Source: Halieaceae bacterium (GTDB taxonomy: Bacteria > Pseudomonadota > Gammaproteobacteria > Pseudomonadales > Halieaceae). From it: DNA of 64,000 nucleotides. The stretch lies in NCBI GenBank assembly GCA_965237855.1, contig CBDEGK010000004.1, forward strand, positions 179,305 to 243,304. The letters run 5' to 3'. The notes beneath the pieces were generated by a model. That model searched no databases. It was given only the letters and a program-made list of their open reading frames with translations, and had not been told where the DNA came from. Of the stretch, positions 45,463 through 63,240 are shown piece after piece (positions within the stretch are counted from its first letter, which is position 1; each line of letters opens with the position of its first letter). Made by a program: the position numbers and the translations under genes.

Positions 45463-45674
45463 TTCTCTGCCTCCTGACGCTGGAAGGCGACCCAGCCTAG
45501 CGCGTTGGCGAAAAATGGTAGTAGTAATATTATAGTCCAGATTGGCTGGATGAGCCGCGCAAGCTGGTCTTCTGCTACCCAGCGAATGGCAGGCCGACCG
45601 TCAGTTTTTCGGTCACAGCGGACCCCGTTCAATCCCGGTTTACCCAGATTCAACTCCGGAACGATGCAAGTCCC

Positions 45675-45707
45675 CTATACTCCGAAAGCGGACATTCGCG
45701 GTCTGCT
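45675..45707 (+). repeat. bipartite array repeat, copy 1 (3' half only; leftmost element of the array)
   Basis: CTATACTCCGAAAGCGGACATTCGCGGTCTGCT matches the 3'-half consensus. No 5' half was seen upstream. Confidence 0.8.
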
Positions 45708-45804
45708 GTACTAAGAGAAATTTTCGATTCAAAATTACCGACGGAGTATGCGTCCATGAGACGTGATATAACATGTCGCTTAGACTTTGAATAGGCTGTT
45801 AGGC
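45708..45804 (+). repeat. conserved ~97-bp leader module, copy M1, ending in the core site GTTAGGC
   Basis: Alignable with the copies at 51093, 54177 and 57446. It contains the palindrome GACGTGATATAACATGTC (45760-45777) and ends GGCTG|TTAGGC. Confidence 0.8.
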
Positions 45805-45823
45805 ATCTCATGAGGAACATATT

Positions 45824-46330
45824 ATGGAGATGAATTGGGAAGCGACAGGAGCAATCGCGGAGCTCCTTGCTGCTCTGGGGGTTATAGCAACACTGGTATA
45901 TTTGGCGGTCCAGATTAAGCAACAAGGTACCTCACAGATTGAGAGTAGCCACAAAGAAGCAAGGGGCCAGTCCTACCAGAGCCTGCTGATGGGCTTACAG
46001 AATCACTTCGGTGCGGTCGCGTTAGACGAAACACTTTCGGATATATTTCGAAGGGGTCTGGCTAGCTACGAATCTCTAAATTCTCTAGAACAATTTCGAT
46101 TTAATTGGGTGCTAGGCGGCTATCTGGTAACCAATGAGAACGCTTTCTACCAGAAGAAAGATGGCATATTGTCCGAAGACCGCTGGGACCATCTGTTCAG
46201 AGCATTGAAGTGGTATTATTTATCCCCTGGTGTCAGAGAGTGGTGGCTGAGCTACCCAAAAGATACCCTCCATCCGGAGTTTGCTGCCCTAATTGAAGAG
46301 TATATTCGAACCATCGAAGAAGCCGCCTAA
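45824..46330 (+). CDS. cassette ORF, family A (N-terminal TM anchor, ~150-170 aa), paralogue 1
   Basis: 168 aa. MEMNWEATGAIAELLAALGVIATLVYLAVQIKQ aligns with the N-termini of the ORFs at 47916 and 57561. The stop codon lies inside the attC R'' box. Confidence 0.75.
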   Translation: MEMNWEATGAIAELLAALGVIATLVYLAVQIKQQGTSQIESSHKEARGQSYQSLLMGLQNHFGAVALDETLSDIFRRGLASYESLNSLEQFRFNWVLGGYLVTNENAFYQKKDGILSEDRWDHLFRALKWYYLSPGVREWWLSYPKDTLHPEFAALIEEYIRTIEEAA

Positions 46331-46414
46331 CAAGTCAGTCAAATTCGCGCCTATCGGCGCCGGACAGCCTAATCGCGGCTTCGCCGCAGGCTACCGTTTA
46401 CTGAGGCGTTACGT
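46325..46414 (+). other. attC recombination site (X1)
   Basis: The site reads GCCTAAC-aag-TCAGTCAAA...TTTACTGA-ggc-GTTACGT. L''/L' pair with one extrahelical C. R'' is the exact complement of the cassette start GTTAGGC at 45798. Confidence 0.75.
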
Positions 46415-46426
46415 CCGCTTCTAGGT

Positions 46427-47653
46427 GTGGATTCAACCGGTCGACGCAACACACGCGTTAAATCGATCAGCTGGTGTTTCGTAGTCTAGCGTTTTTCTCG
46501 GTCTTTCGTTCAGCCGTCTTGCGACGCGATTTAGCTCTGCCTGTGAGTGGACAGACAAATCAGTACCCTTCGGGAAGTACTGCCTCAGTAGTCGGTTGGT
46601 GTTCTCGTTTGAGCCTCGTTGCCAAGGACTCCTCGGATCGCAGAAGTACACTTGAATATCTGTCGCCAGCGTAAATTTCTTGTGGTCACATAACTCCGAA
46701 CCACGATCCCAAGTGAGCGACTTATAGAGTTCGTTGGGCAACTTGCGGGCTTGCTTGATCAAAGCCCGGATCACCGTTTCTGTATTCTTGTTCTCAACCT
46801 TGGCCAGCATCACATACCGGGTCTGGCGTTCCACTAGGGTGGCAATGTACGTATAGTTTGGGCCGGCGATGAGATCCCCCTCCCAGTGACCGGGAACTGC
46901 CCGGTCCTCCACCGAGGCTGGTCGCTCACTGATCGGCACTGCATCCACAATCTTCCCCAATCCCTGCCCTTTCAAGCTGGCATGCTTTGAACGACGCATC
47001 ACACGCTGGGTTCTCAGGCACGCCAAGAGTTCCTTCTTCAGAACGCCGCGGGCCTGTATATACAGACTCTTGTAGATAGTTTCGTGTGACACGTGGTAGC
47101 ACTCATTTGTCTGGTATTGCCGCTTTAACCAGCCTGCAATTTGTTGAGGTGACCACTCAGTTTGTAACTTCTTAGTGATCACCCGCACCAGGCGAGGCTG
47201 GCCTGCCAACTTGCAAACCTTGGGTCGCAAGGCTCGCCGCCAAGCCGCTTCCTCGGCCGAGCTGGCTCGATAGGAAGCATACCCTCCATTGCGCCGAATT
47301 TCCCGGCTCACCGTAGACGGAGATCGGCCAAGTTCAGATGCAATGGCACGCATGGATTGCTGCTTCGCCAGACCCCTGGAGATGATCTCTCGTTCCGCGA
47401 GGGTCAGCGCCAGGGCGGAGCGCGTTCTATCAATGGGGCGGATGCCACCAGTCCTCGAAATAATTCCCTGAACCGAACTGTGGCTTCGGTCAAAAAGGCG
47501 AGCTATTGCATGGAGAGAATCGCCTTTTTCCCAGCGATCCCACATCAGGGCCTTCTGCGTATTTGAGTAATATATCCGAGGCTTTCGTTTCATCAGCAAC
47601 ACTCCTTCTCTCTGCTAAGAGATTAAAGTGTTGCGTCGACCGGTTGAATCCAC
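46427..47653 (-). mobile_element. IS30-family insertion sequence (1227 bp)
   Basis: Perfect 26-bp terminal inverted repeats GTGGATTCAACCGGTCGACGCAACAC lie at 46427-46452 and 47628-47653. AGGT flanks both ends. There is a single transposase ORF. Confidence 0.9.
46433..47596 (-). CDS. IS30 family transposase
   Basis: About 387 aa from MKRKPRIYYSNTQKALMWDRWEKG, with an HTH N-terminus and a DDE region carrying HWEGDLI. Confidence 0.9.
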   Translation of the reverse strand: MMKRKPRIYYSNTQKALMWDRWEKGDSLHAIARLFDRSHSSVQGIISRTGGIRPIDRTRSALALTLAEREIISRGLAKQQSMRAIASELGRSPSTVSREIRRNGGYASYRASSAEEAAWRRALRPKVCKLAGQPRLVRVITKKLQTEWSPQQIAGWLKRQYQTNECYHVSHETIYKSLYIQARGVLKKELLACLRTQRVMRRSKHASLKGQGLGKIVDAVPISERPASVEDRAVPGHWEGDLIAGPNYTYIATLVERQTRYVMLAKVENKNTETVIRALIKQARKLPNELYKSLTWDRGSELCDHKKFTLATDIQVYFCDPRSPWQRGSNENTNRLLRQYFPKGTDLSVHSQAELNRVARRLNERPRKTLDYETPADRFNACVASTG

Positions 47654-47915
47654 AGGTCATAGCAGACGTAGCACCCTCCTGGTTGGATCTGGTTCTCCTT
47701 GCGAACGAGTAAGGTCCGCTATACTCCGAAAGCGGACGTTCCCCCGCCCGATTATCTACCTTGCCTAGGTATAGAGTGCCCCAAACATCCGCAAACAACT
47801 CAAAGCGGAACTAAGGGCAGATGGTGCAACTAGGGCTGCATTGCTAGGATAGCGGAACAGGGGAGCTAAGGAGCTCCGAGCCTTTTTATTGTTTTGCAAC
47901 TAGTAAGGAATTCAT

Positions 47916-48377
47916 ATGAATGCGCTTGATCTGTCAGGCTGGGCTGCGTTAGCCGAGATAATTGCCTCCGTCGGCGTTGTTTTCTCTCTCCTCCTTGTCG
48001 CGTATAGCATCAAGCGAAATACCAGTGAAATGGAAACATCCAATTCCAATTTCTTGTATCAGCTTGATGCAGAAATTGGTGGTGACCTATCTCGAGACAT
48101 TGGATTGGCGACACTGACTCTCAAAGTGAGACAAAACGATGCTCTGTCGGACGTAGAGAAAATTCAATACTTGGCGTTCCAGGCCCGCTATCTGGGTATA
48201 TTGGAGATTGCCTGGACCCAGTACAAAAGTGGAGCTTTGGCCTCCATTGATTGGCGAGACTGGGATAAGTACCTGTCTGATTATGTGAAGGAAGGTCTCC
48301 CCAAGGAATGGTGGATTGAGATTAGGCCATTATATAAACCTGAGTTTGCCGAACACGTAGACAGTAAATTTGAGTAG
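47916..48377 (+). CDS. cassette ORF, family A, paralogue 2
   Basis: 153 aa. The TM anchor is WAALAEIIASVGVVFSLLLVAYSIKRN. The C-terminal W/P pattern is shared with paralogues 1 and 3. Confidence 0.7.
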   Translation: MNALDLSGWAALAEIIASVGVVFSLLLVAYSIKRNTSEMETSNSNFLYQLDAEIGGDLSRDIGLATLTLKVRQNDALSDVEKIQYLAFQARYLGILEIAWTQYKSGALASIDWRDWDKYLSDYVKEGLPKEWWIEIRPLYKPEFAEHVDSKFE

Positions 48378-48472
48378 GATTTCGATGTTTTTCAAGCGAA
48401 TCAGGTTATCGATCATTCTTCGTCTGTATAGATGGAGTCAGCGCCCAGCAATGACCGCCAACAACTCACAGC

Positions 48473-48560
48473 GAACGTCCGCTCCTAGGTCAAAGCAGAC
48501 CTAAAGCCTCGTAGCGGAGCTAGGGCTGCTACACTCCGAAAGCGGACATTCCGAGGCAGT
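48473..48560 (+). repeat. bipartite array repeat, copy 3
   Basis: GAACGTCCGCTCCTAGGTCAAAGCAGACC, a 23-nt spacer, then GCTGCTACACTCCGAAAGCGGACATTCCGAGGCAGT. Confidence 0.85.
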
Positions 48561-48826
48561 TACTCGGAGATGCAGCTATCACCTCCATGTGGACTCTGGC
48601 GCTCGAAGTCGTAGGGCCTGCTTTTGGCACATAGCGTGCACTGAGTTTGAGCTAGGATTCTCAAAGAGCATGCATTTAGTGGAGTACTTTGTAGTCGTTA
48701 GTGTTTGTGTATACTCAAGGCATGTTGCTATGCACCCACCTATCAACGTTATTGAGTCGTAAACCAAAAGCCTTACCGATGGTGTACAAGTTATATATCA
48801 CCGAGACATCCAATAAGCTGTTATAA
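48561..48826 (+). repeat. diverged, longer leader-module-like sequence ending in the core GTTATAA
   Basis: The 3' part, TTATTGAGTCGTAAACC...GAGACATCCAATAAGCTG|TTATAA, is alignable with the ends of the other leader modules. Confidence 0.45.
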
Positions 48827-48850
48827 AGCATTAGCAATCCAAACTTATAT

Positions 48851-48926
<76 letters not shown>

Positions 48927-48988
48927 TTACTAACCAGTCCAACTAGATATTGTCAGTTTGCAATTTACAAAGCTAAGCACTTCACAAT

Positions 48989-49351
48989 ATGGGCAACACA
49001 AATTGTGCTGGCAAAAGGAAAAAACGCTTTAAACAGGCTAGGAGTAATTGCACATGCCATATAACAAGTTCGGGCACAAACGCGCTTCGCGCTGGACTCG
49101 TGGCTTCGCCACTTGCCTTCTTTGTGACGGGGGCGCAATGGTTCACAGCGATCGTTCTCAGTAATCAGCTGATACAAGGTGCCTCGCCCTTCCACTGGTT
49201 GGAGATAATTCTGTACGTAACGATTGGTGTTTTTTTAGTAGGGATTGCGACGGACAATGCGCGAGTGCATGCTGTGTTGGCTATTTGGCCGCCACTGTTC
49301 TTTGTGTTGCTCATAGTTCAGATGTCGCAGCCAGAGCAGCTCTTTCGGTAG
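48989..49351 (+). CDS. hypothetical small membrane protein (start uncertain)
   Basis: 120-aa ORF whose distal 80 aa are hydrophobic (2-3 TM helices). It lies between the tRNA and an attC. No similarity was recognised. Confidence 0.3.
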   Translation: MGNTNCAGKRKKRFKQARSNCTCHITSSGTNALRAGLVASPLAFFVTGAQWFTAIVLSNQLIQGASPFHWLEIILYVTIGVFLVGIATDNARVHAVLAIWPPLFFVLLIVQMSQPEQLFR

Positions 49352-49402
49352 CTGGTGCCGACATAGGGTTTTCAGGAACGAAAGGAGCGAACACATGGAA
49401 AC

Positions 49403-49462
49403 TCATAACAAGCGCAAGCAAGCAGACTTGCGTGCTGCCAGCTGCTGTTTCGGACGTTATGT
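49403..49462 (+). other. attC recombination site (X4)
   Basis: The site reads TCATAAC-aag-CGCAAGCAAGCAG...CTGCTGTTTCG-gac-GTTATGT. The L arms pair with two extrahelical bases. R'' is complementary in 6 of 7 positions to the core GTTATAA at 48820. Confidence 0.6.
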
Positions 49463-49557
49463 CCGCTCCTAGGTCAAAGCGGGCATAGCGTCCCCCAGGT
49501 TAGAAGCGTTCATCTCGCAGGCGAACAAGGTCAGCTCTACTCCGAGAGCAGACTTTC
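49457..49557 (+). repeat. bipartite array repeat, copy 4
   Basis: TTATGTCCGCTCCTAGGTCAAAGCGGGCA, a 48-nt spacer, then GCTCTACTCCGAGAGCAGACTTTC. The 5' half begins at the X4 recombination point. Confidence 0.75.
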
Positions 49558-49702
49558 CCTCATTGTATTTTTGGTGTCTGAAGCGACATACGGGAATCGC
49601 TCGTGAAATTCTGCAATCCGTTCGTCAACAAACAGGTCGGTAGAAATATACCGTAGTGGTCTGTCCCCAGTTATCCCACAAATTGTCTGAATTATCGAAT
49701 TA

Positions 49703-50968
49703 ATGTATGGTGAGAATGCATCTAAATCTTGGTTTCCAATGACCAATTTTCATCAGCCGCGTGTACTGCTTGGGAATGCCGCCGTCGCTCTAATTGCGAT
49801 TGCGTGGCTCTTATCATTTCTAATGCAAATTGATGACATGGTCTCAGATCGGCACATGTCGATGGGGTTCTACGTTTCCCTGTCTCAAGATGGCACCCTC
49901 TTCGTGGATAAATTCCGGTCCGAAAACGACAGCGTCGAGGGGCTACAGCAAAACGACATTATCGTTGGCATTGGTGCTAACAAGTTCGAAGATACGGGAG
50001 GCATCCCGCGATCTCAGAGTGCGTTTCGCTCAGCCTTCCTGAATGCCCACGGCCAGGTCCTCATCGAGAGAGGTGGCCAGATAATACCCATCGCCGCACA
50101 AGTGAAACCTAAGCCGCTCGGCTGGCTGTCTCTGGCACTGAATTGTGTTCTTTGCGCACTCGGTCTTCTCGTCGCATTTTTTGGCAAACCGAACCACGGC
50201 ACACGTAGACCAGCGATGATTCTGCTGATCCTTGCAATCGTAGGGATTGATCCCGTAAACGGCCCCACCGGCGATACCGTCATGCTAAGTTTTATTATCT
50301 ATAGTGTCGCCTGTGGCCTGTACTGGCCTATTTCCATCAACTGGCTGCAACACCTGGCTAAACCTGACGTTGAGTATCGTCGACTGCTGCTGCCGTGGCT
50401 GTTTTCAGTCTTCGGCATCGTTGTTTTCTCATTGCACTGGGGTGCCCCAATACCACCCCCGTTCGCCGACCATGCGTTTACTATCTTGTACTGGGCGGGC
50501 ATGGTGTGTTGGTTCGGAACTGTGTTTCTCATTCACTCACGGCTAGAAACAGCGACGCGTCAACAACTTAACTGGGTGTTAGCCGGAGCTGCGTTCTCAG
50601 TTACAGGCGGATTCGCGGCCTTCGCTGCTGGTTGGATCTTGACAAACGATGACCTCAAGTTCCTTGGTTTATTCACTAAAGGATTTTTTGCTACTGGATT
50701 TGCAATGGCAATCCTGAAATCCGATTTCGGACACATTGACCGTGTTGTAAGCGTCTCATTGACCTATGCAATCCTCGTCGCGCTGTTCGCCCTATCTCTT
50801 GAGTTTTTTGTCGAGCCGTTGGCGGTCTTCTCAGCGACCTACATCGGCTTGCCAGAAGAAACAGGTAAAACGATACTCATTGTCATTGTCGCTTTAGGTA
50901 CGCCGGGACTAAAGAAAATGATTCAACCCGGGATCAAAAATTACTTCCTCGGTGTTTCATCCGCATAG
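49703..50968 (+). CDS. polytopic membrane protein with an N-terminal PDZ-like domain
   Basis: 421 aa. It has one TM helix, a PDZ-like segment (GLQQNDIIVGIGANKF...IERGGQIIPI), then about 7 TM helices. The ATG at 49739 is an alternative start. Confidence 0.6.
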   Translation: MYGENASKSWFPMTNFHQPRVLLGNAAVALIAIAWLLSFLMQIDDMVSDRHMSMGFYVSLSQDGTLFVDKFRSENDSVEGLQQNDIIVGIGANKFEDTGGIPRSQSAFRSAFLNAHGQVLIERGGQIIPIAAQVKPKPLGWLSLALNCVLCALGLLVAFFGKPNHGTRRPAMILLILAIVGIDPVNGPTGDTVMLSFIIYSVACGLYWPISINWLQHLAKPDVEYRRLLLPWLFSVFGIVVFSLHWGAPIPPPFADHAFTILYWAGMVCWFGTVFLIHSRLETATRQQLNWVLAGAAFSVTGGFAAFAAGWILTNDDLKFLGLFTKGFFATGFAMAILKSDFGHIDRVVSVSLTYAILVALFALSLEFFVEPLAVFSATYIGLPEETGKTILIVIVALGTPGLKKMIQPGIKNYFLGVSSA

Positions 50969-51007
50969 TAAAGATAATTGGAGACAGACCCCAGTTTTAG
51001 ATATTTT

Positions 51008-51092
51008 GAGTGACTGCTTTTAGGTCCTACCGACAAACCTCTCAACTGAATAAGGTCGGCTATACTCCGAAAGCAGACGTTCGATGTCTACT
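51008..51092 (+). repeat. bipartite array repeat, copy 5 (5' half degenerate)
   Basis: GAGTGACTGCTTTTAGGTCCTACCGAC, a spacer, then GCTATACTCCGAAAGCAGACGTTCGATGTCTACT. Confidence 0.7.
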
Positions 51093-51190
51093 ATGCTGAG
51101 AGAAATTATTGACTCAAAACCACTGCCGGAGAAATGTGTCCAGGAGACGTGATATAACACGTCACTTGGACAATGAATAAGCTGTTAGGA
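51093..51190 (+). repeat. conserved leader module, copy M5, ending in the core GTTAGGA
   Basis: Nearly identical to the copy at 54177. The palindrome GACGTGATATAACACGTC lies at 51146-51163. Confidence 0.85.
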
Positions 51191-51198
51191 GGCACGAC

Positions 51199-51684
51199 AT
51201 CGAAGAAGCCGAGACATTTTCGCTACTGGCAGAGGTAGCCGTCGCGCTCGCTGGGTTCACTGGTGTTGCAGCTGCGTTCGGCGGTCGGTCTCGTGAGTAT
51301 TCCGCAGCCGACCGAGTCCGTCTTGCAGCAATTTTTCTTTCCAGCGCGTGTGTCCTCGCAATTAGCCTTTGCGTGCTTACGCTCAAAAGCATCCTATTGG
51401 ATGCTGAAACGGTTTACGCCTACAGTGGTCTCTTGGGAGCTTTCTTTTTGGTTTGGTTCCTCTATCCACTTACACCTAGAACTTACGCGCTGGCCAGGGA
51501 TGCTGATACCTCCACCTCTCTGTCAATCGTCACACTGGGAACGCTTCAGAACGTTATAAGCCTGGTCTTATTACTTGCTAACTTTATTGTTTGGAGATCG
51601 GCCGGGCCGTTACTTGCAGCGGCGTCGATCCAGATTATGTGGTCGCTGTTGCTTTTCGCTCGTCTTTTAGTCCGACCCAACTAG
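51199..51684 (+). CDS. cassette ORF, family B (polytopic membrane), paralogue 1, with no canonical start codon (ATC aligned to the paralogue's ATG)
   Basis: The frame is open from 51181. (I)EEAETFSLLAEVAVALAGFTGVAAAF aligns with METTDLLLVGAEVSVAFAGFAGIIATF of the 51959 ORF. AGGAGG lies 6 nt upstream of the ATC. The first canonical start (GTG 51373) would delete the conserved N-terminus. Confidence 0.45.
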   Translation: MEEAETFSLLAEVAVALAGFTGVAAAFGGRSREYSAADRVRLAAIFLSSACVLAISLCVLTLKSILLDAETVYAYSGLLGAFFLVWFLYPLTPRTYALARDADTSTSLSIVTLGTLQNVISLVLLLANFIVWRSAGPLLAAASIQIMWSLLLFARLLVRPN

Positions 51685-51695
51685 GCTATGCGCTC

Positions 51696-51770
51696 TCCTA
51701 ATAAGTCAATCAACTACGCGCCTCTGGCGCCGGACTGGCTTACAGCCAGCCGGTTATTGAGGCGTTACTG
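51696..51770 (+). other. attC recombination site (X2)
   Basis: The site reads TCCTAAT-aag-TCAATCAA...TTATTGA-ggc-GTTACTG. It has the same architecture and extrahelical C as X1. R'' is complementary in 6 of 7 positions to the cassette start GTTAGGA at 51184. Confidence 0.7.
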
Positions 51771-51857
51771 AACGACCGCTCCTAGGTCAAAGCAGACGTA
51801 GAGAGCCAGTTGGCAGGATGGCCGCTATACTCCGTGAGCAGCCATTCGCCGTCTGTT
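51770..51857 (+). repeat. bipartite array repeat, copy 6
   Basis: GAACGACCGCTCCTAGGTCAAAGCAGACG, a 25-nt spacer, then GCTATACTCCGTGAGCAGCCATTCGCCGTCTGTT. Confidence 0.8.
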
Positions 51858-51958
51858 ATGCATAATGGCAGTAAACTACTCTGAAGGGTCATTCGCCTGA
51901 CTGTCCCACCCTCTCCATTTCGGTCTATCCTTGTATCAATCTAATATCTAGGAGATCG

Positions 51959-52504
51959 ATGATGGAGACGACTGACTTACTATTAGTTGGGGCTGAAGTG
52001 AGTGTGGCGTTTGCCGGGTTTGCAGGCATTATCGCAACATTTCAATTTAGGGATGATAGAGAAATCAAACGTGGTGACGTAGTAGGACTGACAATGATTG
52101 TCCAAATTTCCTTAGGGTGTGCGTTGCTCACTGTTATCCCTATAGTTCTCTCAATCATTGGAATCGACGAGGGGACATTGTGGGCCGCTTGCAGCGCCTT
52201 TGGAGCCAGTTGGGGCACTTACAACATGTACGTTGTAAATAGAAATATGAGGGGAGCCGGCAGGAAAACTTCTCAGCGAATACTATTCGGGAGTTTTCAA
52301 GGAGCGTTTGGCCTCCTCGTTATCTCATTGATTCTCAATGCAGTAGATATTTACTTTCATAGAGAGCCTGGCCCATATCTAGTGGGGCTTGTTCTATGTT
52401 TTAGCTTGGTTAGTTACATGTTCGCGCGTCTACTTCTTCACCCTTTGTGGCGAGCCGTTCAGAGCCAGGAAGCCGCAAATATCAGCGGAGCCACGCCAAG
52501 TTGA
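51959..52504 (+). CDS. cassette ORF, family B (polytopic membrane), paralogue 2
   Basis: 181 aa, about 5 TM helices. The GGAG motif lies upstream of the ATG. Confidence 0.7.
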   Translation: MMETTDLLLVGAEVSVAFAGFAGIIATFQFRDDREIKRGDVVGLTMIVQISLGCALLTVIPIVLSIIGIDEGTLWAACSAFGASWGTYNMYVVNRNMRGAGRKTSQRILFGSFQGAFGLLVISLILNAVDIYFHREPGPYLVGLVLCFSLVSYMFARLLLHPLWRAVQSQEAANISGATPS

Positions 52505-52531
52505 GCGTCCGCTTTTAGATCATAGCGGACC
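52505..52531 (+). repeat. bipartite array repeat, copy 7 (5' half only; perfect hairpin)
   Basis: GCGTCCGCTTTTAGATCATAGCGGACC forms the stem GTCCGCT/AGCGGAC. It starts directly after the family B stop codon. Confidence 0.7.
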
Positions 52532-52607
52532 TCTAATTTACAGGGGATGGAATTGTTCTATAGTTAGTCTTATTGGAATCCAACATTGAAACTGGAGCGT
52601 TGTAATT

Positions 52608-53921
52608 GTGATGATACTTAAGAAAACTCTAACTATTGCCGCTGTTGTTGTCACTGGTGCCACCCTATATATGTGGGGTCATACAGACGCGCGCTATGGT
52701 AGAACTGTGTTTAAGTCTGCAGAAGCTGCAAGCACGCCAATGATTTCTGCAGTCAAGGCGCGGTCGCGCGATGTTTATTCTCCGAATAGTGAGGACCTTG
52801 CATCGGATGAGATGCGTGTTATCGCATGTGGTACCGGTATGCCGACCACCCGCGCCGCGCAAGCTGCTGCCTGCTTTCTCGTCGAGCTTGGAAATGGCGA
52901 CAAGTTCATCTTCGATGTTGGATCCGGTTCGGCCGAACGAATTTCGTCCTTGCAGATCCCTTACGACTTCCTCGACAAGATCTTCATTGGACACCTGCAC
53001 GCCGATCATTTCGGTTCACTGGGAGAGATATTCATCGGGGGCGCACTCATGGGGCGGCAGAAACCGCTACAAGTCTGGGGCCCGAACGGCCCCTCCCCCG
53101 AGCTAGGTACCGCATATGCCGTTCAGAAAATGAAGGAAATGTACACATGGGACCTCGCCGGGCGCGTCGGTATTGTCGACTTTCGGGGTTACACGATTGA
53201 GGTCAACGAATTCGATTACAAAGCTGAAAACGCTGTAATCTATGAGAAGAACGGGGTGACAATCCGCTCGTTTCCCGCGATCCATTCACTCGACGGACCC
53301 GTTAGCTTCAGTCTGGAATGGAACGAGCTGAAATTCGTCTTCGGCTCGGACTCTTATCCCAACAAATGGTTCGTGAAATATGCCAAAGACGCGGATCTTG
53401 CTGTACACGAGTGTTTCGTCGCTGTTCCCGATCTGATCAAGAAGATGAGGTTCACGCCGGAGCAGGCCTTGCTCGTTGGTACCCAGATACACACCGCCCC
53501 GGAGGCTTTTGGCAAGCTAATGGCGGAAATCCAGCCGCGTATGGCCGTGGCGTATCATTTCTTCAAGGATTTTGACACAACTGCGCAAGTGAACGACCGC
53601 ATCCGCACTACTTATGACGGGCCACTGAGCCTTGCTGAAGATTTCATGGTCTGGAACATCACCAAGGATGACATAACTGTCAGGATGGCAGTTGTGGAAG
53701 AACACACGTGGGCGCCGCCTCTGACAGGTGCCCCGCAGCCTCCTGGGGGAGATAAAGACAGAGAGCAATTCAGTAAGGATGCGGGTATTCCCATTGGTGC
53801 GCTATCCTACTCAGATTTTGTCATCGAAGGTCGGTGGAGCGAAGTCGACGAGGCGCTCCGGGGAGTCTACAGGGAGGCGAGCGAGGCGGTTGGCAGGACG
53901 TTTGAATATCCAACGAAGTAG
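52608..53921 (+). CDS. MBL-fold metallo-hydrolase (RNase Z/beta-lactamase superfamily) with an N-terminal signal/anchor
   Basis: 437 aa with the HLHADH motif and a hydrophobic N-terminus LTIAAVVVTGATLYMW. The start is GTG 52608 or ATG 52611. Confidence 0.75.
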   Translation: MMILKKTLTIAAVVVTGATLYMWGHTDARYGRTVFKSAEAASTPMISAVKARSRDVYSPNSEDLASDEMRVIACGTGMPTTRAAQAAACFLVELGNGDKFIFDVGSGSAERISSLQIPYDFLDKIFIGHLHADHFGSLGEIFIGGALMGRQKPLQVWGPNGPSPELGTAYAVQKMKEMYTWDLAGRVGIVDFRGYTIEVNEFDYKAENAVIYEKNGVTIRSFPAIHSLDGPVSFSLEWNELKFVFGSDSYPNKWFVKYAKDADLAVHECFVAVPDLIKKMRFTPEQALLVGTQIHTAPEAFGKLMAEIQPRMAVAYHFFKDFDTTAQVNDRIRTTYDGPLSLAEDFMVWNITKDDITVRMAVVEEHTWAPPLTGAPQPPGGDKDREQFSKDAGIPIGALSYSDFVIEGRWSEVDEALRGVYREASEAVGRTFEYPTK

Positions 53922-54008
53922 AGTAATCGCACTCTGATAAGCCGTGTCAGCTGGGCGCCATGCCACGGCCTCACCACGCGGCAGGTGCCAGTACAATCAA
54001 GCGTTGCT

Positions 54009-54176
54009 GAGGGTCCGCTTTTGGCACAAAAGGGCCCGATTCAGCCCTGAATTTTCCACTCCGCCAACGGCCGGAATTAGGTCATAGCAGACATAACGCA
54101 CTCTAGGCTCCAACCGATGATTCTCGCAGCGGAGCAAAGACCGCTATGCTCCGAAAGCGGATGTTCACGGTCTGCT
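54009..54176 (+). repeat. bipartite array repeat, copy 8, with a ~54-bp insertion in the 5'-half loop
   Basis: GAGGGTCCGCTTTT [54023-54076 insert] TTAGGTCATAGCAGAC, a spacer, then GCTATGCTCCGAAAGCGGATGTTCACGGTCTGCT (54143-54176). Confidence 0.75.
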
Positions 54177-54274
54177 ATGTTGAGAGAAACTCTTGACTCA
54201 AAACCACTGCCGGAGAAATGTGTCCATGAGACGTGATATAACACGTCACTTAGACATTGAATAGGCTGTTATGT
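54177..54274 (+). repeat. conserved leader module, copy M8, ending in the core GTTATGT
   Basis: The palindrome GACGTGATATAACACGTC lies at 54230-54247. The module ends GGCTG|TTATGT. Confidence 0.85.
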
Positions 54275-54334
54275 GTTTCAGGAACGGTCGTTCGACCCTA
54301 AGCGCTCGTATATTTATCTCACAAGGACTCGTTG

Positions 54335-55114
54335 ATGGCGCTTCCAAACACCATCGATTCATTGTGTCGGGACTTATCTGACATAGGACTCGGGTCCGGA
54401 ACGACAGTAATGGTTCATTCCTCGCTGGGTAAAGTTGGCTGGACGGTTGGTGGACCGGTATCAGTGATTCGTGCTCTTCTAGAAGTCGTCGGACCAGAGG
54501 GAACATTGGTCATGCCGGCGGCGTCTCCGAACGTATCTGACCCAAGCGGATGGAATGACAAACGGGTGAAGGCTGACTGGCATGGAACGATACGAGAGCA
54601 CCTTCCCGTGTTCGATCCGCTAACAACACCAACGACGATGGGCGTGATTCCAGAGGCATTTAGGGCGCTTCCCGGAACACTAAGGAGTAACCACCCAATG
54701 GTGTCGGTTTGCGCCAACGGCCCACTTGCAAGGCAAATCACGAAAGAACATTCGATGGAATTTTGCGAGGGTAAGGGGACGCCATTTGAGAAACTCTACC
54801 AGCTAGACGCGCATACGCTATTGCTAGGTGTAGGCTTCAACCGATGCACGTCTTTGCACTATGCAGAGTCGTTGGTGTCTACGCGACGAACGACAGTACA
54901 TAGATTCCCCCTGATGGAGAACGATGACCGAATCTGGGTGGAAGTCCCAGACATGGCAAGCGACGACGGTATTCATTTTCCAGTCGTTGGTGAACAGTTT
55001 GCTGCAACTGGTGCGGTTTGCGCTGGCCGTGTGGGGGAGGCAGATTCGATGCTATTTGCAACTCGACAGCTAGTCGATTTTGCCGAATTGTATTTCGCCC
55101 GAGTGCTCAGTTGA
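54335..55114 (+). CDS. aminoglycoside N(3)-acetyltransferase family protein, AAC(3)
   Basis: 259 aa. LGSGTTVMVHSSLGKVGWTVGGPVSVIRALLEVVGPEGTLVMPA and GFNRCTSLHYAES are typical of the AAC(3)/Antibiotic_NAT fold. Confidence 0.8.
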   Translation: MALPNTIDSLCRDLSDIGLGSGTTVMVHSSLGKVGWTVGGPVSVIRALLEVVGPEGTLVMPAASPNVSDPSGWNDKRVKADWHGTIREHLPVFDPLTTPTTMGVIPEAFRALPGTLRSNHPMVSVCANGPLARQITKEHSMEFCEGKGTPFEKLYQLDAHTLLLGVGFNRCTSLHYAESLVSTRRTTVHRFPLMENDDRIWVEVPDMASDDGIHFPVVGEQFAATGAVCAGRVGEADSMLFATRQLVDFAELYFARVLS

Positions 55115-55195
55115 CGGATGATATCTACAATCCGTAGCCGTATCTACTTGTGGCCGTATACAGAATTGGCATTTTTTTTCATGAACCTAATCAAC

Positions 55196-55285
55196 ACATA
55201 ACAAGGCAATGAATCGGACATCTTAAAGCATGCTTCCACTCCGCTACAGCAAGCATTGAAAATGCCGGTTATCGCGGCGTTATGC
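55196..55285 (+). other. attC recombination site (X3)
   Basis: The site reads ACATAAC-aag-GCAATGAATCGG...CCGGTTATCGC-ggc-GTTATGC. R'' is the exact complement of the cassette start GTTATGT at 54268. Confidence 0.65.
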
Positions 55286-55294
55286 GGTTGTGGC

Positions 55295-55869
55295 GAGCGT
55301 CCGCTCCTAGGTCATAGCTTCCCCGACGCTATCTAAAATAACATTTGTCTCGCGTAGGAAATCATTAGCACCAGCTGTACGCCAAACAATCCGCCACGCA
55401 GAATAACCATCGGCAACGCCGTAGATGTCATATGCACAACCGATTGACCCACCCTTGCGTACAACACAAACATCACCGTACCTTCCAGAATGGCCATTTG
55501 GTCAGACAGGCCTGCCGCTGCGACCAACGCCGTAAATACTGGCAGGGTTTCCAGACAATTGAGATGGGCTCGTGTAACGCGCCGGCCAAACCCAGGTAAA
55601 TCCTCACCATCAGGTGAGAACTGGTTGAGCGCAATTTTCGAACCTCCAAAAGAATTGGCGAATCTATTGACCACCATGATCAGGGTAACGACCAGTGTCC
55701 AAGCTGCAAAACCCGCTAATGCCGTAATTGCTTCGTTCATTATTGCTCTCCGCTTACTTTCAGCTATAGGGCAAGTATTGTTTACCTGATCTACTCCCAT
55801 GAAGCAACCAGCCACGGCAGATACATCATCTGGCGGCTATACTCCGGAAGCGGCCCTTCGGGGTCTGCT
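55295..55869 (+). repeat. bipartite array repeat, copy 9, whose two halves enclose the inverted MAPEG gene
   Basis: The 5' half GAGCGTCCGCTCCTAGGTCATAGCTTCC lies at 55295-55322. The 3' half GCTATACTCCGGAAGCGGCCCTTCGGGGTCTGCT lies at 55836-55869. Confidence 0.7.
55333..55740 (-). CDS. MAPEG family membrane protein
   Basis: 135 aa from ATG 55740 (MNEAITALAGFAAWTLVVTLIMVV...), 4 TM helices, with RAHLNCLETLPVF typical of MAPEG. It is the only minus-strand cassette ORF. Confidence 0.65.
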   Translation of the reverse strand: MNEAITALAGFAAWTLVVTLIMVVNRFANSFGGSKIALNQFSPDGEDLPGFGRRVTRAHLNCLETLPVFTALVAAAGLSDQMAILEGTVMFVLYARVGQSVVHMTSTALPMVILRGGLFGVQLVLMISYARQMLF

Positions 55870-55934
55870 TTGCTGAAGGGCAACTATTCACCTGCAGCAT
55901 GCGGCGAAGCGGCGCTGCTTAACGGGGTCACGTT

Positions 55935-56231
55935 ATGTTCAAGAAACGCAATCTGAGAAGACTCATCGACTCTTTCGGGACCGCGTTCTCTTCTGAACGC
56001 GTCGCTGATCTACAGTCGTATGTTAACCATGGTGAGTATGGATTGGCGATCGAGATATTGAGTGAAATGATCTATGAAGACGATATCGCAGTCGATGCAG
56101 AACAGGAGAAGGCTATTCTCAAGAGTTCTACCGACTTTGGCGTTGACCACGATTACCACGCGTTCATTGGCAGGAGACCGCCGTATCCAGACCTGAGAAC
56201 TCCTGAGCAGATTGCCGACGCTAGGAAATAG
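55935..56231 (+). CDS. small cytoplasmic protein, MafI-like immunity-protein pattern (tentative)
   Basis: 98 aa. YVNHGEYGLAIEILSEMIYEDDIAV resembles a polymorphic-toxin immunity family as I recall it. The ATG sits inside a GTTATGT core (55932-55938). Confidence 0.4.
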   Translation: MFKKRNLRRLIDSFGTAFSSERVADLQSYVNHGEYGLAIEILSEMIYEDDIAVDAEQEKAILKSSTDFGVDHDYHAFIGRRPPYPDLRTPEQIADARK

Positions 56232-56261
56232 CCTATTTTTTGGCAGGGAGAGTAGCCTTGG

Positions 56262-56361
56262 GAACGTCCGCTCCTAGGTCAAAGCAGACCTAGAGCCATA
56301 CACCAACCTCGCAGCCTGGCTAGGTCGGCTATACTCCGAAAGCGGACGTTCAAGGTCTGCT
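56262..56361 (+). repeat. bipartite array repeat, copy 10 (closest to consensus)
   Basis: GAACGTCCGCTCCTAGGTCAAAGCAGACC, a 37-nt spacer, then GCTATACTCCGAAAGCGGACGTTCAAGGTCTGCT. Confidence 0.9.
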
Positions 56362-56448
56362 ATGCTAAATGACAGACAGCGACTCGCTGGAAGCTTCAGC
56401 TCAGCTTACGGGTCATATTGGGTGGAATGACAGCATCGGGGTGGAAAT

Positions 56449-57195
56449 ATGGACGACGCACTATGTAGTACGGAAGATCACGATACATACGCTGTTGTGA
56501 GATTTCACCCTCGAAACAGTTTCTATACGGCAGATACCGAGGCGGTCTCTGAAATGTGGCAGTTATATGACGAGCTACAGATTGAGAGCAAGAAGGTCGT
56601 CCTGTTTAGGTCGCCGAGGGATTATTACGCTCCAAGGATGCTCGATGATTTCTGGAAAACCGCCAAGGCGGCGCCATCGATTCTGCAGTATGACGGACGC
56701 CGCATACCGCAGGTGGTTGCGTACGCCGATATTTCAATCAAGCGCTATCTCGCGTTCATGCATGCCATTCCTGCGATGACCATAAGCTCCATAGAAGGCG
56801 AAATGGATTTCGATTTGCTGGGTTTGTTTCTCACGGCGAGCTACAGGATATGTAGCAGTGATACGGTCTTTGTTAATCGAACCCTCCAGCGTCAACTTCC
56901 CCCAGGATGTGCCACTCCTTGGTTCCTGAGTAACTTACTGGGACCGGTCGTTGCGAAAAAACTGTATCTATCCAACGAGCGGCTAAACGCGGAAGAGGCC
57001 CTGGAGCTGGGTATCGTTGATCGCATAACGGAACCAGATGCATTGGAACGGGAGAGTCTTGAGGTCGTGCAGCAATTTTCCCAAGTTGAGGGAACTGCGC
57101 TCGCGTCACTTGTGCAAGCAATCACCTCATCCAATCACGATCTGGATACTTATCTATCTCAGGCGGGTGCGGGATTCGATCACCTGATTTCATAG
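56449..57195 (+). CDS. crotonase-fold (enoyl-CoA hydratase/isomerase-like) protein with degenerate oxyanion-hole motifs
   Basis: 248 aa. The overall pattern is ...SSIEGEMDFDLLGLFLTASYRICS...LSNERLNAEEALELGIVDRI..., and the usual Gly-rich loops are replaced. Confidence 0.5.
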   Translation: MDDALCSTEDHDTYAVVRFHPRNSFYTADTEAVSEMWQLYDELQIESKKVVLFRSPRDYYAPRMLDDFWKTAKAAPSILQYDGRRIPQVVAYADISIKRYLAFMHAIPAMTISSIEGEMDFDLLGLFLTASYRICSSDTVFVNRTLQRQLPPGCATPWFLSNLLGPVVAKKLYLSNERLNAEEALELGIVDRITEPDALERESLEVVQQFSQVEGTALASLVQAITSSNHDLDTYLSQAGAGFDHLIS

Positions 57196-57359
57196 TCGCC
57201 GGGGAGCCATAAAAATTGGAGCCCTAGTACTCGGGGCGGTTAATGCTCGTAAGGTTTTCTGATTGACAGGAGGTATCTCCCGGCGCTTCTCGCGCCAATT
57301 TTAAGGTGTCCATCAAACCGGAGCAAAACGACGAAGCTCCCATTCCTGATGTCCAATGC

Positions 57360-57445
57360 GAACGTCCGGTTCTAGGTCAAAGCAGACCCTGGGCTTGTGC
57401 TCGCAGTTGCAGCTATACTCCGAAAACGGACGTTCCCAGTCTGCT
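57360..57445 (+). repeat. bipartite array repeat, copy 11
   Basis: GAACGTCCGGTTCTAGGTCAAAGCAGACC, a 23-nt spacer, then GCTATACTCCGAAAACGGACGTTCCCAGTCTGCT. Confidence 0.85.
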
Positions 57446-57541
57446 ATGCTGAGGAAAATTATCGACTCATAACTACTGTCGGAGATATATCATTGTGCCG
57501 CGTTACAACACGGTGCTTTGCCACTGAATAAGTTGTTATGT
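57446..57541 (+). repeat. leader module, copy M11 (more diverged), ending in the core GTTATGT
   Basis: ATGCTGAGGAAAATTATCGACTCATAACTACTG...GCCACTGAATAAGTTG|TTATGT. The central palindrome is replaced by CCGCGTTACAACACGG. Confidence 0.7.
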
Positions 57542-57560
57542 GTCTAATTAGGAGTTCTGC

Positions 57561-58019
57561 ATGAACTGGGACGCAATAGGTGCTATTGGCGAGATATTAG
57601 GTGCTACCGCAGTCCTAATCACCTTGGTATATCTCGCAACTCAAGTGAGACGGTCCAATGAACTTGCCTATTTTAACGGGGCCAAGGAAATTATTAATCA
57701 GTTTAACGATCTCAATCGTCTAGTAGCTACAGATTCAACGCTCCGGCAGGTTTTGATGAAAACTGACGAGCTAACAGCCGAAGAGGTAGAGCAGATCTAC
57801 AACTTTGCAATGATGTTTTGTAATGTCTGGCTGTCAGCGCAGAGTGCCCATGACAATGGTCAGCTCGATACGAGTACATACCAAGCTTGTGCGCAGGATG
57901 TATCAATCGAACTTGCCCGATGGCCGAATTTTCGGCCCGCGCTGGAGCAATGGATTTCCAATTATCCACAACATGAAAGCCAGAAGATAATGCAACCTAT
58001 CGTGAGTGGAATGCATTGA
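57561..58019 (+). CDS. cassette ORF, family A, paralogue 3 (last ORF of the array)
   Basis: 152 aa starting MNWDAIGAIGEILGATAVLITLVYLATQVRR. AGGAG lies 8 nt upstream. Confidence 0.75.
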   Translation: MNWDAIGAIGEILGATAVLITLVYLATQVRRSNELAYFNGAKEIINQFNDLNRLVATDSTLRQVLMKTDELTAEEVEQIYNFAMMFCNVWLSAQSAHDNGQLDTSTYQACAQDVSIELARWPNFRPALEQWISNYPQHESQKIMQPIVSGMH

Positions 58020-58064
58020 AACCAGGCTCTCAGGATCAAATGCTAAAGACGCATACCTAGACAA

Positions 58065-58727
58065 CTAACGCCACTCGTCTTCAAAGGCCTCACCACAGCC
58101 CCGCAGTTCCCTGCCATCGAGGTTGAGTAGTACTCGATTGGAGAACACCTGACCCGACATGCTGTCCTGGCACCAGTCGGCATTGATCTCTATGCTGAGC
58201 TGGTGCTGTGCGTTCTGGGCCTGATAAATAGCAGTCTCAGCATCCAATGCGGGTTCCGGCGCATCAAACAGGTAGCGACTGCCGCCGTAATCGGCCACCA
58301 ATAGGATTTGCTGGCCAGCTTTGATTTCCAGGAACCAGCCGGGTTCCTGCCCCACTGCTCGAAACTGAACGCCGCGCCGGCGGGCGTCCTCCCAGGGTCC
58401 GCGCTGAACATTGAGCTGGCAGTTGCTATAGCTGCGATAGCCCAGGTCCAACACAGTTCCATCGTCCTTCAAATGAAGTACCGCGCCGCCGCCCTCATAC
58501 TTCGAACCGGATACAGATCGCACCTTTTCCATGACCAGACTATCCTCGGGCATATACAAGGTAATACCTTGCGAACTGTCGCGCGTAACAAATTCGAACT
58601 CGCCACACTCATAGACCCGGGTCGCGGCGATACTTTGCACCACTTTTTCTGCCGGCCGCGGCTGGTTAGAGCACGCAGACAACAGCAAAAGCGAGAGCCA
58701 GAACAGTCTGTTCATAATCCTATCCAT
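58065..58727 (-). CDS. lipoprotein, MliC-like N-terminal domain plus a second conserved domain
   Basis: The lipobox is LLLLSAC. The VYECGEFEFVT...GSKYEGGG pattern is MliC-like. 220 aa. Confidence 0.5.
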   Translation of the reverse strand: MDRIMNRLFWLSLLLLSACSNQPRPAEKVVQSIAATRVYECGEFEFVTRDSSQGITLYMPEDSLVMEKVRSVSGSKYEGGGAVLHLKDDGTVLDLGYRSYSNCQLNVQRGPWEDARRRGVQFRAVGQEPGWFLEIKAGQQILLVADYGGSRYLFDAPEPALDAETAIYQAQNAQHQLSIEINADWCQDSMSGQVFSNRVLLNLDGRELRGCGEAFEDEWR

Positions 58728-58735
58728 AGTCGAGT

Positions 58736-59851
58736 TCAGGCCAGGGGCGCCACGGAACTGAGTATCAGGCGCACCAGCAAACTCTGCCGGGTAACGCCGG
58801 TTTTGGAAAACAAGGCACGCAAATGCGTGCGGGTGGTATTACGGCTAACCGTCAACTCCGTCGACGCCTCATCCAGATTTAGTCCCTGGGCCAACATCAT
58901 CGCCAGCCTGGCCTCGGTTGGGGTAAAACCGAATAGACGGGTTATGACGTCCACGGGCGTTTCCGACACACGCTCGGGATCGCTGATAAACACCACCACG
59001 CTGGGCATTGCTTGCCCTTCCACCGCGCTGGTTTCCGGCACCTTGCGAATCACCAGGCCCAGGTCAGCCCGCTGGCTACTGCGAGGTACACGCAGTGCTT
59101 CAACCGCCACCGCGTCCCGGTCAATGGCTGGCCGCAAGGCTGCCTCAATCATAGTCTGCAATTCCCGGTTGGCTTCACGGCTGGTCAATTGCAACGATGG
59201 CCCTTGCATGCCAATGCCATCCGCTTCGGCCAACAATTCCTCCGCCCGCTTATTGCGAGACAGTACCCGGCCGCTCTCGTCCAGTATGATGGCAGCCACT
59301 GCCAGTTGATCGATGGCGCCGGCGTAGAGAGCCCGCTCTTTCTCGCTACGATGCAAGCGTGAATGCAGGCGAATAGCTCTCGCCAGGTGCGGCAACAAGG
59401 CCTGCACCAGGTTTTTTTCGCGCTTGCCAAATTTTTTTGCACCCTGGTAGCGGCCAACCCGAAAGCGCGCATCCATCTCACTGCCATCTCGTAGATCGGC
59501 GCCGAGAAAATCGTACCAACGCTGCGGCTCCATAACCACTTTATAGAAATCGCTGGCCAGCAGGGCCTCGGTAGTCATAAATTCGTGCAGACTGATGACT
59601 TCGCCGCTCTCGAGGTTCACGAAGGGATCCAGGGCGAACTGTTCCTCGTTATAACTCTCAATGGCCGTCAGCGAACCGCCGTCGCTCAACATCACGTTGT
59701 GACCTTCGCTGCGCGGTGGCCGCAGCAACAGGGTTACGGTATGGGCACCCAACTGCTCGCGGATTTCCGCCAGGAATGACTGCCAGGGTGACGCTTCCAG
59801 CGGTCCCTCATAGATCAACCCCAGCAGCTCACTGAAGCCGTCAGCCTTCAC
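58736..59851 (-). CDS. LuxR-family transcriptional regulator (C-terminal HTH, N-terminal sensory domain)
   Basis: The C-terminus is TPTEARLAMMLAQGLNLDEASTELTVSRNTTRTHLRALFSKTGV. GTG start. Confidence 0.8.
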   Translation of the reverse strand: MKADGFSELLGLIYEGPLEASPWQSFLAEIREQLGAHTVTLLLRPPRSEGHNVMLSDGGSLTAIESYNEEQFALDPFVNLESGEVISLHEFMTTEALLASDFYKVVMEPQRWYDFLGADLRDGSEMDARFRVGRYQGAKKFGKREKNLVQALLPHLARAIRLHSRLHRSEKERALYAGAIDQLAVAAIILDESGRVLSRNKRAEELLAEADGIGMQGPSLQLTSREANRELQTMIEAALRPAIDRDAVAVEALRVPRSSQRADLGLVIRKVPETSAVEGQAMPSVVVFISDPERVSETPVDVITRLFGFTPTEARLAMMLAQGLNLDEASTELTVSRNTTRTHLRALFSKTGVTRQSLLVRLILSSVAPLA

Positions 59852-61146: not shown

Positions 61147-61154
61147 ACCCCGGT

Positions 61155-61880: not shown

Positions 61881-61922
61881 AGGCGTGCATCATACGCTAT
61901 CAACCTGTACAAGGAGAGCAAC

Positions 61923-62810: not shown

Positions 62811-62820
62811 GGAGCACTAC

Positions 62821-63225: not shown

Positions 63226-63240
63226 GGCGCCAGCCGCATA

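Follow-up and report, generated by a model that had tools for sequence, protein, structure and literature searches.

An integron cassette array without a neighboring integrase in a Halieaceae genome carries two repeated noncoding elements at its cassette junctions

We examined 64,000 nt of contig CBDEGK010000004.1 (assembly GCA_965237855.1, positions 179,305 to 243,304 of the forward strand) from a Halieaceae bacterium; we refer to this whole stretch as the window. Between ordinary chromosomal genes lies a block of about 12.5 kb (45595 to 58064) that holds 12 open reading frame (ORF) units, a tRNA gene, and an insertion sequence (IS), in the order given in Table 1. Its GC content is 0.46 to 0.55, against 0.56 to 0.60 in the flanks, with the drop between ~45.5 and 58 kb. 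Five of the 12 ORF units are classical integron cassettes (ORF1, tRNA-Gly plus ORF3, ORF5, the AAC(3)-like gene ORF8, and ORF12). All five start at G|TT, and four end in a classical attC site (X1 to X4). The remaining seven ORFs are separated by a palindromic repeat alone, which we call E. A second repeat, P, ends where classical cassettes begin. The classical cassettes stand singly, each between a P end and an E, and nowhere do two X sites bound adjacent cassettes.

Classical attC sites and the search for an integrase

We built a covariance model from six class 1 integron attC sites [aac(6')-29a, blaVIM-2, arr-3, aac(6')-Ib, aadB, and aadA2], extracted from public plasmid integrons and aligned, with the R-box and L-box pairs and a bulged L'' base in the model. 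We searched both strands of the window (128 kb of search space) without filters. X4, X1, and X2 were the model's three best matches in the whole window. X3 escaped detection because AAT replaces AAC in its R'' core. X1 and X4 are very similar to the arr-3 attC (R''-AAR-L'' with a bulged base ... L'-GGC-GTTA), and the architecture R''-spacer-L'' (bulged base)...L'-GGC-R' is common to the X sites and the arr-3, VIM-2, and aadB sites. An imperfect L box, extrahelical base(s), and AAC/GTT cores are present together in X1, X2, and X4, not in X3. The motif TAAYAAG-N40-70-GRCGTTAY, which was defined only after the sites had been seen, occurs four times, always on the plus strand within the block, versus 0.016 occurrences expected. 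Two other approaches were dropped. With a home-made attC pattern scanner, X1 was the only site recovered, and shuffled sequence yielded as many matches as the window; in a wider alignment with environmental sites the L' region aligned too poorly to model.

The R'' box of each X site is complementary to the start of its own cassette. The pairs are GCCTAAC/GTTAGGC (X1, 7 of 7 positions), ACATAAC/GTTATGT (X4, 7 of 7), TCCTAAT/GTTAGGA (X3, 6 of 7), and TCATAAC/GTTATAA (X2, 6 of 7), for a total of 26 of 28; only 1 of the 24 permutations was equally good. The match of R'' to the adjacent R' was much poorer. We observed the same pattern in metagenome contigs (7/7 in L018 and 6/7 in L006), and over nine cassettes, four from the window and five from other contigs, 60 of 63 positions were complementary (permutation P, ~2.5e-5). 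This complementarity is the scar of circular-cassette insertion by an integron integrase at G|TT. An original prediction, made from the sequence alone, had placed four attC sites here, had counted these matches, and had staked its claim on their recurrence in other arrays of the same genome. Its coordinates and counts were right, and the ORF1 stop codon does lie within R'' (46328 to 46330), as it had stated. Full attC architecture, which it gave to all four sites, stood for X1, X2, and X4 and not for X3, with its AAT core and no model match.

Possible decayed remnants of classical attC sites were seen after ORF11 (~57205 to 57245; ..CCATAAAAATTGG...GGCGGTTAATGC) and after ORF7 (~53990 to 54015; ..AATCAAGCGTTGCTGAGG). 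They hint that some of the units now separated by E alone may once have had classical attC sites.

We found no tyrosine recombinase in six frames of the 64 kb using phmmer with IntI1 and XerD queries (best E-value, 0.9); the IntI1 query was 100% identical to real IntI1. Among all other called genes, which cover 45.6 kb upstream and 5.9 kb downstream, no recombinase was matched by Pfam. The window thus holds no complete integron, with intI, attI, and the cassette promoter Pc beside the first cassette. Nor do the cassettes abut: E follows every X site, and P or a P-end piece precedes every classical cassette.

By the definition of Cury et al. (2016, PMC4889954), a cluster of attC sites lacking an integron integrase (CALIN) comprises two or more attC sites that lie on one strand at spacings of <4 kb, in the absence of a neighboring intI. 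The classical attC sites of the block, two at the least and arguably all four, share one orientation and lie at such distances (the spacings between the starts of X1 to X4 are 3.1, 2.3, and 3.5 kb), with no intI in the vicinity, so the block falls under this definition. We concluded that it is integron derived and a CALIN, probably one in decay. The label CALIN-like in the original prediction therefore fits, and so do its statements that the block is AT-richer than its surroundings, that the window encodes no tyrosine recombinase, that the flanks are noncassette genes, and that no attC follows the last ORF (we found none between ORF12 and the convergent MliC-like gene). Its co-orientation also holds, with only ORF9 and the IS transposase on the minus strand. 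The label is incomplete in that only 5 of the 12 ORF units are classical and E marks every junction.

The E and P repeats

E is 80 to 105 nt long and consists of two 7-10-7 palindromes flanking a variable center, usually bounded by AAC...GTT. The left half reads (G)AAC GTCCGCT CCTAGGTCAA AGCAGAC and the right half GTCSGCT ATACTCCGAA AGCGGAC NTTC; the 25 to 50 variable nt between them fall into two subfamilies. The block contains 10 to 11 copies, and the 51 kb of the window outside the array contains none. The two halves gave nine and five close matches (≤3 mismatches), all on the plus strand between 45595 and 57435, where ~0 are expected by chance. An E or half E is present at every gene junction of the block, and E begins 4 to 19 nt past the G|TT of X1 to X4 and of the X sites in the metagenome contigs L016 and L018. 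What had been described as an orphan half-repeat at 45675, opening the array, is the right half of a complete, degenerate copy (E0), which is followed by P1. Both repeat families, the IS, and the tRNA gene had been overlooked.

We compared two folds of E over 16 aligned copies. In the first, one long imperfect hairpin of a single strand, AAC and the left 5' arm pair with the right 3' arm and GTT; inward of these come a 10 × 10 internal loop, a 7-bp inner stem with a central mismatch (left 3' arm with right 5' arm), and a variable tip. This fold pairs 79.7% of cells with a covariation of 0.093, versus 0.078 when shuffled, and two of its pairs are compensated, the central outer pair (CG 10, UA 2, UG 1) and one inner pair (AU 5, CG 3, UA 1, GU 1). 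The second fold, two local hairpins, pairs 76.5% of cells with a covariation of 0.051, versus 0.053 when shuffled. We rejected two independent hairpins because there was no covariation and the central pairs were mostly unpaired (in 11 to 12 of the 16 copies). The comparison weakly favors one long hairpin over two local ones. So folded, E would have an attC-like layout (an AAC/GTT outer stem, an unpaired spacer, an imperfect inner stem, and a variable tip), with a sequence and exact geometry that are not those of attC. E lacks the model score, the invariant GTT, and the L box with extrahelical bases of a classical attC, and the one match of the class 1 model to any E, in contig L014, was weak (10.3 bits; E-value, 1.2). 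E as a known RNA family was also rejected, with no match in Rfam.

Past the right half of E, ~45 nt (GTCTGCTATGCT..CGACTCA) are conserved in 12 of 12 aligned units. This leader extends into a full P in four copies in the window and two in metagenome contigs. P is ~110 nt long and runs through a 15-bp hairpin, which is conserved and has one compensated pair, to ...TGAATAAGCTG|TTA. The final ~17 nt of P are similar to the L'-spacer-R' half of an attC, and its last G|TT is the cassette start given in the original prediction. Part or all of P is found at five junctions. Segments from the R' of an X site to the next P end have G|TTA at both edges, and the distance from the P-end junction to the ORF start is 15 to 64 nt, as in normal cassettes. 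A leader peptide in P was rejected, since neither a start codon nor a reading frame is conserved.

We searched for these repeats elsewhere. A 19-mer from the right half of E had four single-copy matches in 185,579 species-representative genomes (GTDB, one per species), about the number expected by chance, and the inspected genomes with a match held no further E or P motif. The same 19-mer identified metagenome contigs with the same order of E, P, and X (L006, L009, L011 to L014, L016, and L018), and L035, found through a protein homologue, has this order too; the E-bearing metagenome contigs are short (≤4.2 kb). In contrast, the array on contig L034, where a homologue of ORF1 (64% identical) is found, is classical throughout: its attC sites are X-like, its R''/start matches are perfect, and E and P are absent. 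Such classical cassettes therefore circulate in ordinary integrons, and the E/P lattice is a lineage-specific addition. Contigs L009 and L014 are ~95% identical up to the ...GCGGAC-N-TTC of an E right half and unrelated past it, and L009 and L011 have in common a unit with one edge in a left-palindrome loop and the other just past the next palindrome. Palindrome edges thus behave as junctions. Contig L020 has a cassette-like run of small co-oriented genes with no E, P, or clear attC sites. We found no literature on such a lattice or on integrons in Halieaceae, within an incomplete coverage.

Cassette cargo, insertion sequence, and chromosomal setting

Table 1. Features of the block, in window coordinates

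Feature	Position	Strand	Remarks
E0	45595..45697	+	Left palindrome degenerate, right intact (45670-45693); ends ATTC
P1	45698..45804	+	Ends ...GAATAGGCTG|TTAGGC
Classical cassette 1	45799..46408	+	ORF1 (45824-46330, 168 aa)
X1, classical attC	46325-46414	+	R'' GCCTAAC, bulged base in L'', R' GTTACGT; 20.2 bits, E-value 0.0073
E1	46411..47741	+	Split by the IS in the loop of the left palindrome
IS30-family insertion sequence	46427..47653	-	Transposase 46433-47602 (389 aa)
ORF2	47916..48377	+	ORF1 paralogue; no classical attC after it
E2	48473..48551	+
P-end-like piece	48798..48826	+	...CCAATAAGCTG|TTATAA; start mark of next classical cassette
Classical cassette	48821..49456	+	tRNA-Gly(CCC) 48851-48926; ORF3 48989-49351
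X2, short classical attC	49403-49462	+	12.5 bits, E-value ~1
E3	49457..49557	+
ORF4	49703..50968	+	421 aa, no family match
E4, P2	51007..51190	+	E4 51007-51082; P2 51083-51190, ends GCTG|TTAGGA
Classical cassette	51185..51764	+	ORF5 frame 51199-51684
X3, attC-like site	51696-51770	+	Mutated R'' core TCCTAAT; bipartite motif; not detected by class 1 model
E5	51770..51847	+
ORF6 and lone left palindrome	51959..52531	+	ORF6 51959-52504; stop codon overlaps palindrome 52503-52531
ORF7	52608..53921	+	Metallo-β-lactamase (MBL)-fold hydrolase, GntH-like family
Extra left palindrome, E7, P3	54008..54274	+	Palindrome 54008-54037; E7 54064-54166; P3 54167-54274, ends GCTG|TTATGT
Classical cassette	54269..55279	+	ORF8 54332-55114, AAC(3)-family acetyltransferase
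X4, classical attC	55196-55285	+	23.1 bits, E-value 0.0012
E8, split around ORF9	55295..55859	not assigned	Left palindrome 55295-55323; right palindrome 55832-55859
ORF9	55333-55815	-	MAPEG family
ORF10, E9, ORF11	55935..57195	+	ORF10 55935-56231; E9 56262-56351; ORF11 56449-57195 (enoyl-CoA hydratase-like)
E10, P4	57360..57541	+	E10 57360-57435; P4 57436-57541, ends GTTG|TTATGT
Last cassette	57536..58064	+	ORF12 57561-58019, ORF1 paralogue; no attC and no E after it

ORF1, ORF2, and ORF12 belong to one uncharacterized family of ~160 amino acids with a hydrophobic N terminus and no Pfam or NCBIfam match. Members also occur on L013, L014, L016, L018, L034, and L035, and homologues on the long contigs L019, L021/L022, and L024 are lone genes in nonarray contexts. 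The tRNA-Gly(CCC) gene scores 69.5 bits and lies beside ORF3 (120 amino acids) in a classical cassette bounded by G|TTATAA and X2. It shares 77 to 85% identity with many tRNA-Gly genes, some of them from phages. We found no reports of tRNA genes as integron cassette cargo in an incomplete survey of the literature.

In ORF5, a perfect AGGAGG ribosome-binding site is followed, 6 nt further on, by ATC in the place of the start codon; the first in-frame ATG, GTG, or TTG is 174 nt downstream. From its sequence, ORF5 either would use a rare start codon or may be a recent pseudogene. ORF7, which stands by itself in a cassette-like unit flanked by a lone left palindrome and E7, passes the NCBIfam cutoff for GntH, an MBL-fold hydrolase of guanitoxin biosynthesis (480 bits versus 333). 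ORF8 matches PF02522 (5e-76) and scores below the NCBIfam AAC(3) cutoffs (190 bits versus 270). It is thus a distant relative of known aminoglycoside resistance enzymes in an environmental chromosomal array. ORF9, the sole reversed cassette gene, lies between the two palindromes of one E, as if inserted into its variable center.

The IS is a single copy in the window and has the marks of the IS30 family. Its single transposase has HTH_38 and rve domains, that is, an N-terminal helix-turn-helix and a DDE catalytic domain (NF033563, 289 bits versus a cutoff of 80), and the element has ~26-bp terminal inverted repeats and a 2- to 4-bp flanking duplication (GG or AGGT). It is inserted at CCTAGG|TCA in the loop of the E1 left palindrome. 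The same inverted-repeat end is present at the same position of another E in an independent metagenome contig (L013, ~300 to 345), and this suggests that the element targets the left palindrome of E.

We assigned the window outside the block to ordinary chromosome by Pfam searches of the called genes. To the left are gpsA, htpG, the tricarboxylic acid cluster sdh-suc-lpd plus gltA, ligA, smc, the ccm operon for cytochrome c maturation, a PP-loop ATPase gene (possibly tilS), mdh, a TetR regulator gene, and an RHS-repeat lipoprotein gene (43240 to 45462, minus strand), whose start abuts the left end of the array. To the right are genes for an MliC-like lipoprotein, convergent with the last cassette, a LuxR-family regulator, GFA, EamA, MOSC, RidA, and LEH. 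Homologues of the LuxR-family protein are from Halioglobus and Halieaceae, and we used it to retrieve three sets of relatives (65 to 68% amino acid identity in this protein). In one relative (L005), the order LEH-RidA-MOSC-EamA-GFA-LuxR-MliC is kept (compared with 58065 to 63621 of the window); another (L039) has a 225-amino-acid gene at the MliC-like position. Past that position, both have a few variable genes, then a cco/fix cluster (ccoGHIS/ccoNOQP), and no array, whereas in the source genome this position is followed by the array and, further on, by RHS, tetR, mdh, and the ccm operon. Because the flank order is kept up to the MliC-like gene and other genes follow in the relatives, the array is, by gene order, at a synteny break. 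The contigs of the third set, found with P0003, stop ~1 kb past the regulator with nothing visible beyond, and an empty, array-less insertion site was not recovered among these retrievable relatives.

Origin and meaning of the E/P lattice

We favor, at a probability of about 0.55, the reading that E is the lineage's own inter-cassette site and that P is an attI-like docking point for classical cassettes inserted by an integrase. The block itself is a chromosomal integron cassette array of a Halieaceae-type gammaproteobacterium that has either lost its integrase or come to lie apart from it. According to this model, P would be a repeated docking point where classical cassettes from the common environmental pool were inserted by the integrase, whether it worked in trans or, at an earlier time, in cis. 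The array may now be largely frozen, because it shows signs of decay or disruption (the AAT core of X3, the IS in E1, the lack of a start codon in ORF5, and a last cassette without a site) and no integrase lies in the window.

Several observations weigh against this reading. There is one classical cassette per P and never a tandem, unlike what is expected for an active attI. P, considered as an attC, was rejected on its fold, which is not attC-like. The class 1 model, with six sequences and limited sensitivity, found no match to any E in the window at an E-value of ≤10. Real attC sites have a near-invariant GTT, and in E the position directly 5' of the right-end TTC (alignment column 113) holds a G in no more than about half of the copies. 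The covariation score of the long hairpin was reached by 59 of 500 shuffles and so is weak. We found no complementarity like that of R'' to its own cassette start at the flanks of E or of P-ended segments, beyond GAAC/GTTC. No integrase is present on any of the short E-bearing contigs, and we found no precedent in the literature for reiterated attI-like sites inside an array.

We compared the block with known systems. Like a CALIN (PMC4889954), it is chromosomal, with co-oriented attC sites <4 kb apart, no intI or intI pseudogene near, cassettes mostly of unknown function, and an IS. It differs in that 4 to 5 of its 12 gene units have a classical attC, that the classical cassettes are never adjacent, and that E stands at every junction and part or all of P at five, neither of which has a place in the CALIN or integron model. 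It also resembles sedentary chromosomal integrons whose attC repeats are homogeneous and species specific, for example, the Vibrio arrays with their Vibrio cholerae and related-species repeats (VCR/VXR). Both are long arrays with one highly similar lineage-specific repeat (here 80 to 105 nt), with conserved ends and a variable center, copied in the same direction after each ORF. Unlike VCR/VXR, E is without R''/L'' and L'/R' box sequences or obvious extrahelical bases, its AAC/GTT is at the outer end of a 10-bp stem and not beside an unpaired spacer, the G of its GTT is variable, it occurs alongside classical attC sites within the same cassettes, and there is no integrase to link it with.

A broader view, to which we give a fairly low probability, is that the lattice is a so far undescribed second level of integron organization. 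E would be a noncanonical family of attC-like folded recombination sites that bound the lineage's own cassettes, and P would let classical cassettes enter the array at many sites within it and not just beside the integrase. A new noncoding mobile element specialized for cassette junctions would be equally novel. This second form is the strongest competitor to our preferred reading, though we consider it rather unlikely: E, with or without P, would be a small nonautonomous mobile element that has spread through the junctions of what is otherwise an ordinary cassette array. Candidates for it are an ORF-less "selfish" cassette and a hairpin like those of miniature inverted-repeat transposable elements, REPINs (doublets of repetitive extragenic palindromes [REPs]), or palindrome-associated transposable elements, moved in trans by a single-strand-acting enzyme into the region just past the R' box of attC. 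The E- and P-free cassettes of L034 make E an addition, as this explanation would have it. It would also account for the short, fixed range of distances from X sites to E, the G|TTA at both edges of the segments between X and P ends, the single orientation of the copies, the two subfamilies with different centers, the two lone left half-elements, and the homology breakpoints at palindrome edges. However, E is missing from the remaining 51 kb of the window, the 19-mer of its right half has only single-copy matches at about chance level in the species-representative genomes, and E was not found in plasmids (one E7-P3 query) or viral contigs. No candidate transposase or HUH enzyme was seen in the window or on the E-bearing contigs. 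A discrete insertion ending in GTTC does not explain the conserved leader past E, and E also stands between ORFs that have no recognizable classical attC.

Known elements of this kind offer only partial parallels. IS1111-attC elements and group IIC-attC introns, which have attC sites as their targets, share with E and P the placement of extra DNA at a fixed position from attC, in a single orientation, repeated along an array. E and P differ in being 80 to 200 nt long without coding capacity, ribozyme, or transposase, and E lies past R', not inside attC; the IS found here is of the IS30 family and lies in E itself, not in an attC. Group II introns in integrons have been described (PMC7923331). 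REP/REPIN and IS200/IS605-derived palindromes share paired short palindromes with a variable linker, a possible fold into one long hairpin, and co-orientation within a region. Unlike them, E is confined to the array in the window, has no repeat family in the species-representative genomes searched, and has palindromes with different, individually conserved loops. No REP-associated tyrosine transposase (RAYT) gene was found in the window, and no TnpA gene was seen.

We consider it improbable that E and P serve in cis as expression modules that selection maintains and that homologous recombination or gene conversion, and not site-specific recombination, has spread, with E as an insulator, terminator-like element, or RNA-processing hairpin and P as a promoter or 5' leader for cassettes far from Pc. 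P does lie directly upstream of ribosome-binding sites and carries, besides its conserved hairpin, TTGACT or TCGACT, which is like a -35 box; conservation is unbroken from the right half of E into the leader; and integrase-less arrays have no Pc (Cury et al. 2016, PMC4889954). Against this, our promoter scan rejected P as a sigma-70 promoter, with no such site in any P, and E contains no T-tract terminator. Like E, P has no Rfam match, its structure z-scores are weak, and neither the exact G|TT at the end of P nor the R''/start complementarity would be explained. Finally, a generic genomic island, for example, one targeted to a tRNA gene, with attC-like sites as chance palindromes, would fit the tRNA gene, the lower GC content, and the IS, but a chance or nonintegron origin is effectively excluded by the rank of X4, X1, and X2 in an independent attC model, the complementarity statistics, the motif count, and the small co-oriented ORFs of mixed function typical of cassettes, and tRNA targeting was rejected because there is no integrase and the tRNA 3' end (24 nt, ≤3 mismatches) has no second copy in the window.

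A CALIN call alone would be routine, because integrase-less cassette arrays are common and well described. What is not routine is an architecture that is reproducible here and in about ten environmental contigs, in which a nonclassical palindromic repeat stands at every junction and classical cassettes are docked singly between two conserved noncoding elements. Of smaller interest are the tRNA-bearing classical cassette and the AAC(3)-family gene, the latter for what it says about movable cassette cargo. Should E or P be parasites of these junctions, they would be a new class among the few elements that target integrons. If instead they are recombination substrates, as in our preferred reading, the range of sites used by integron-type systems would be wider, and tools based on attC models would undercount the cassettes of this lineage, seeing here 3 to 4 of ~12.

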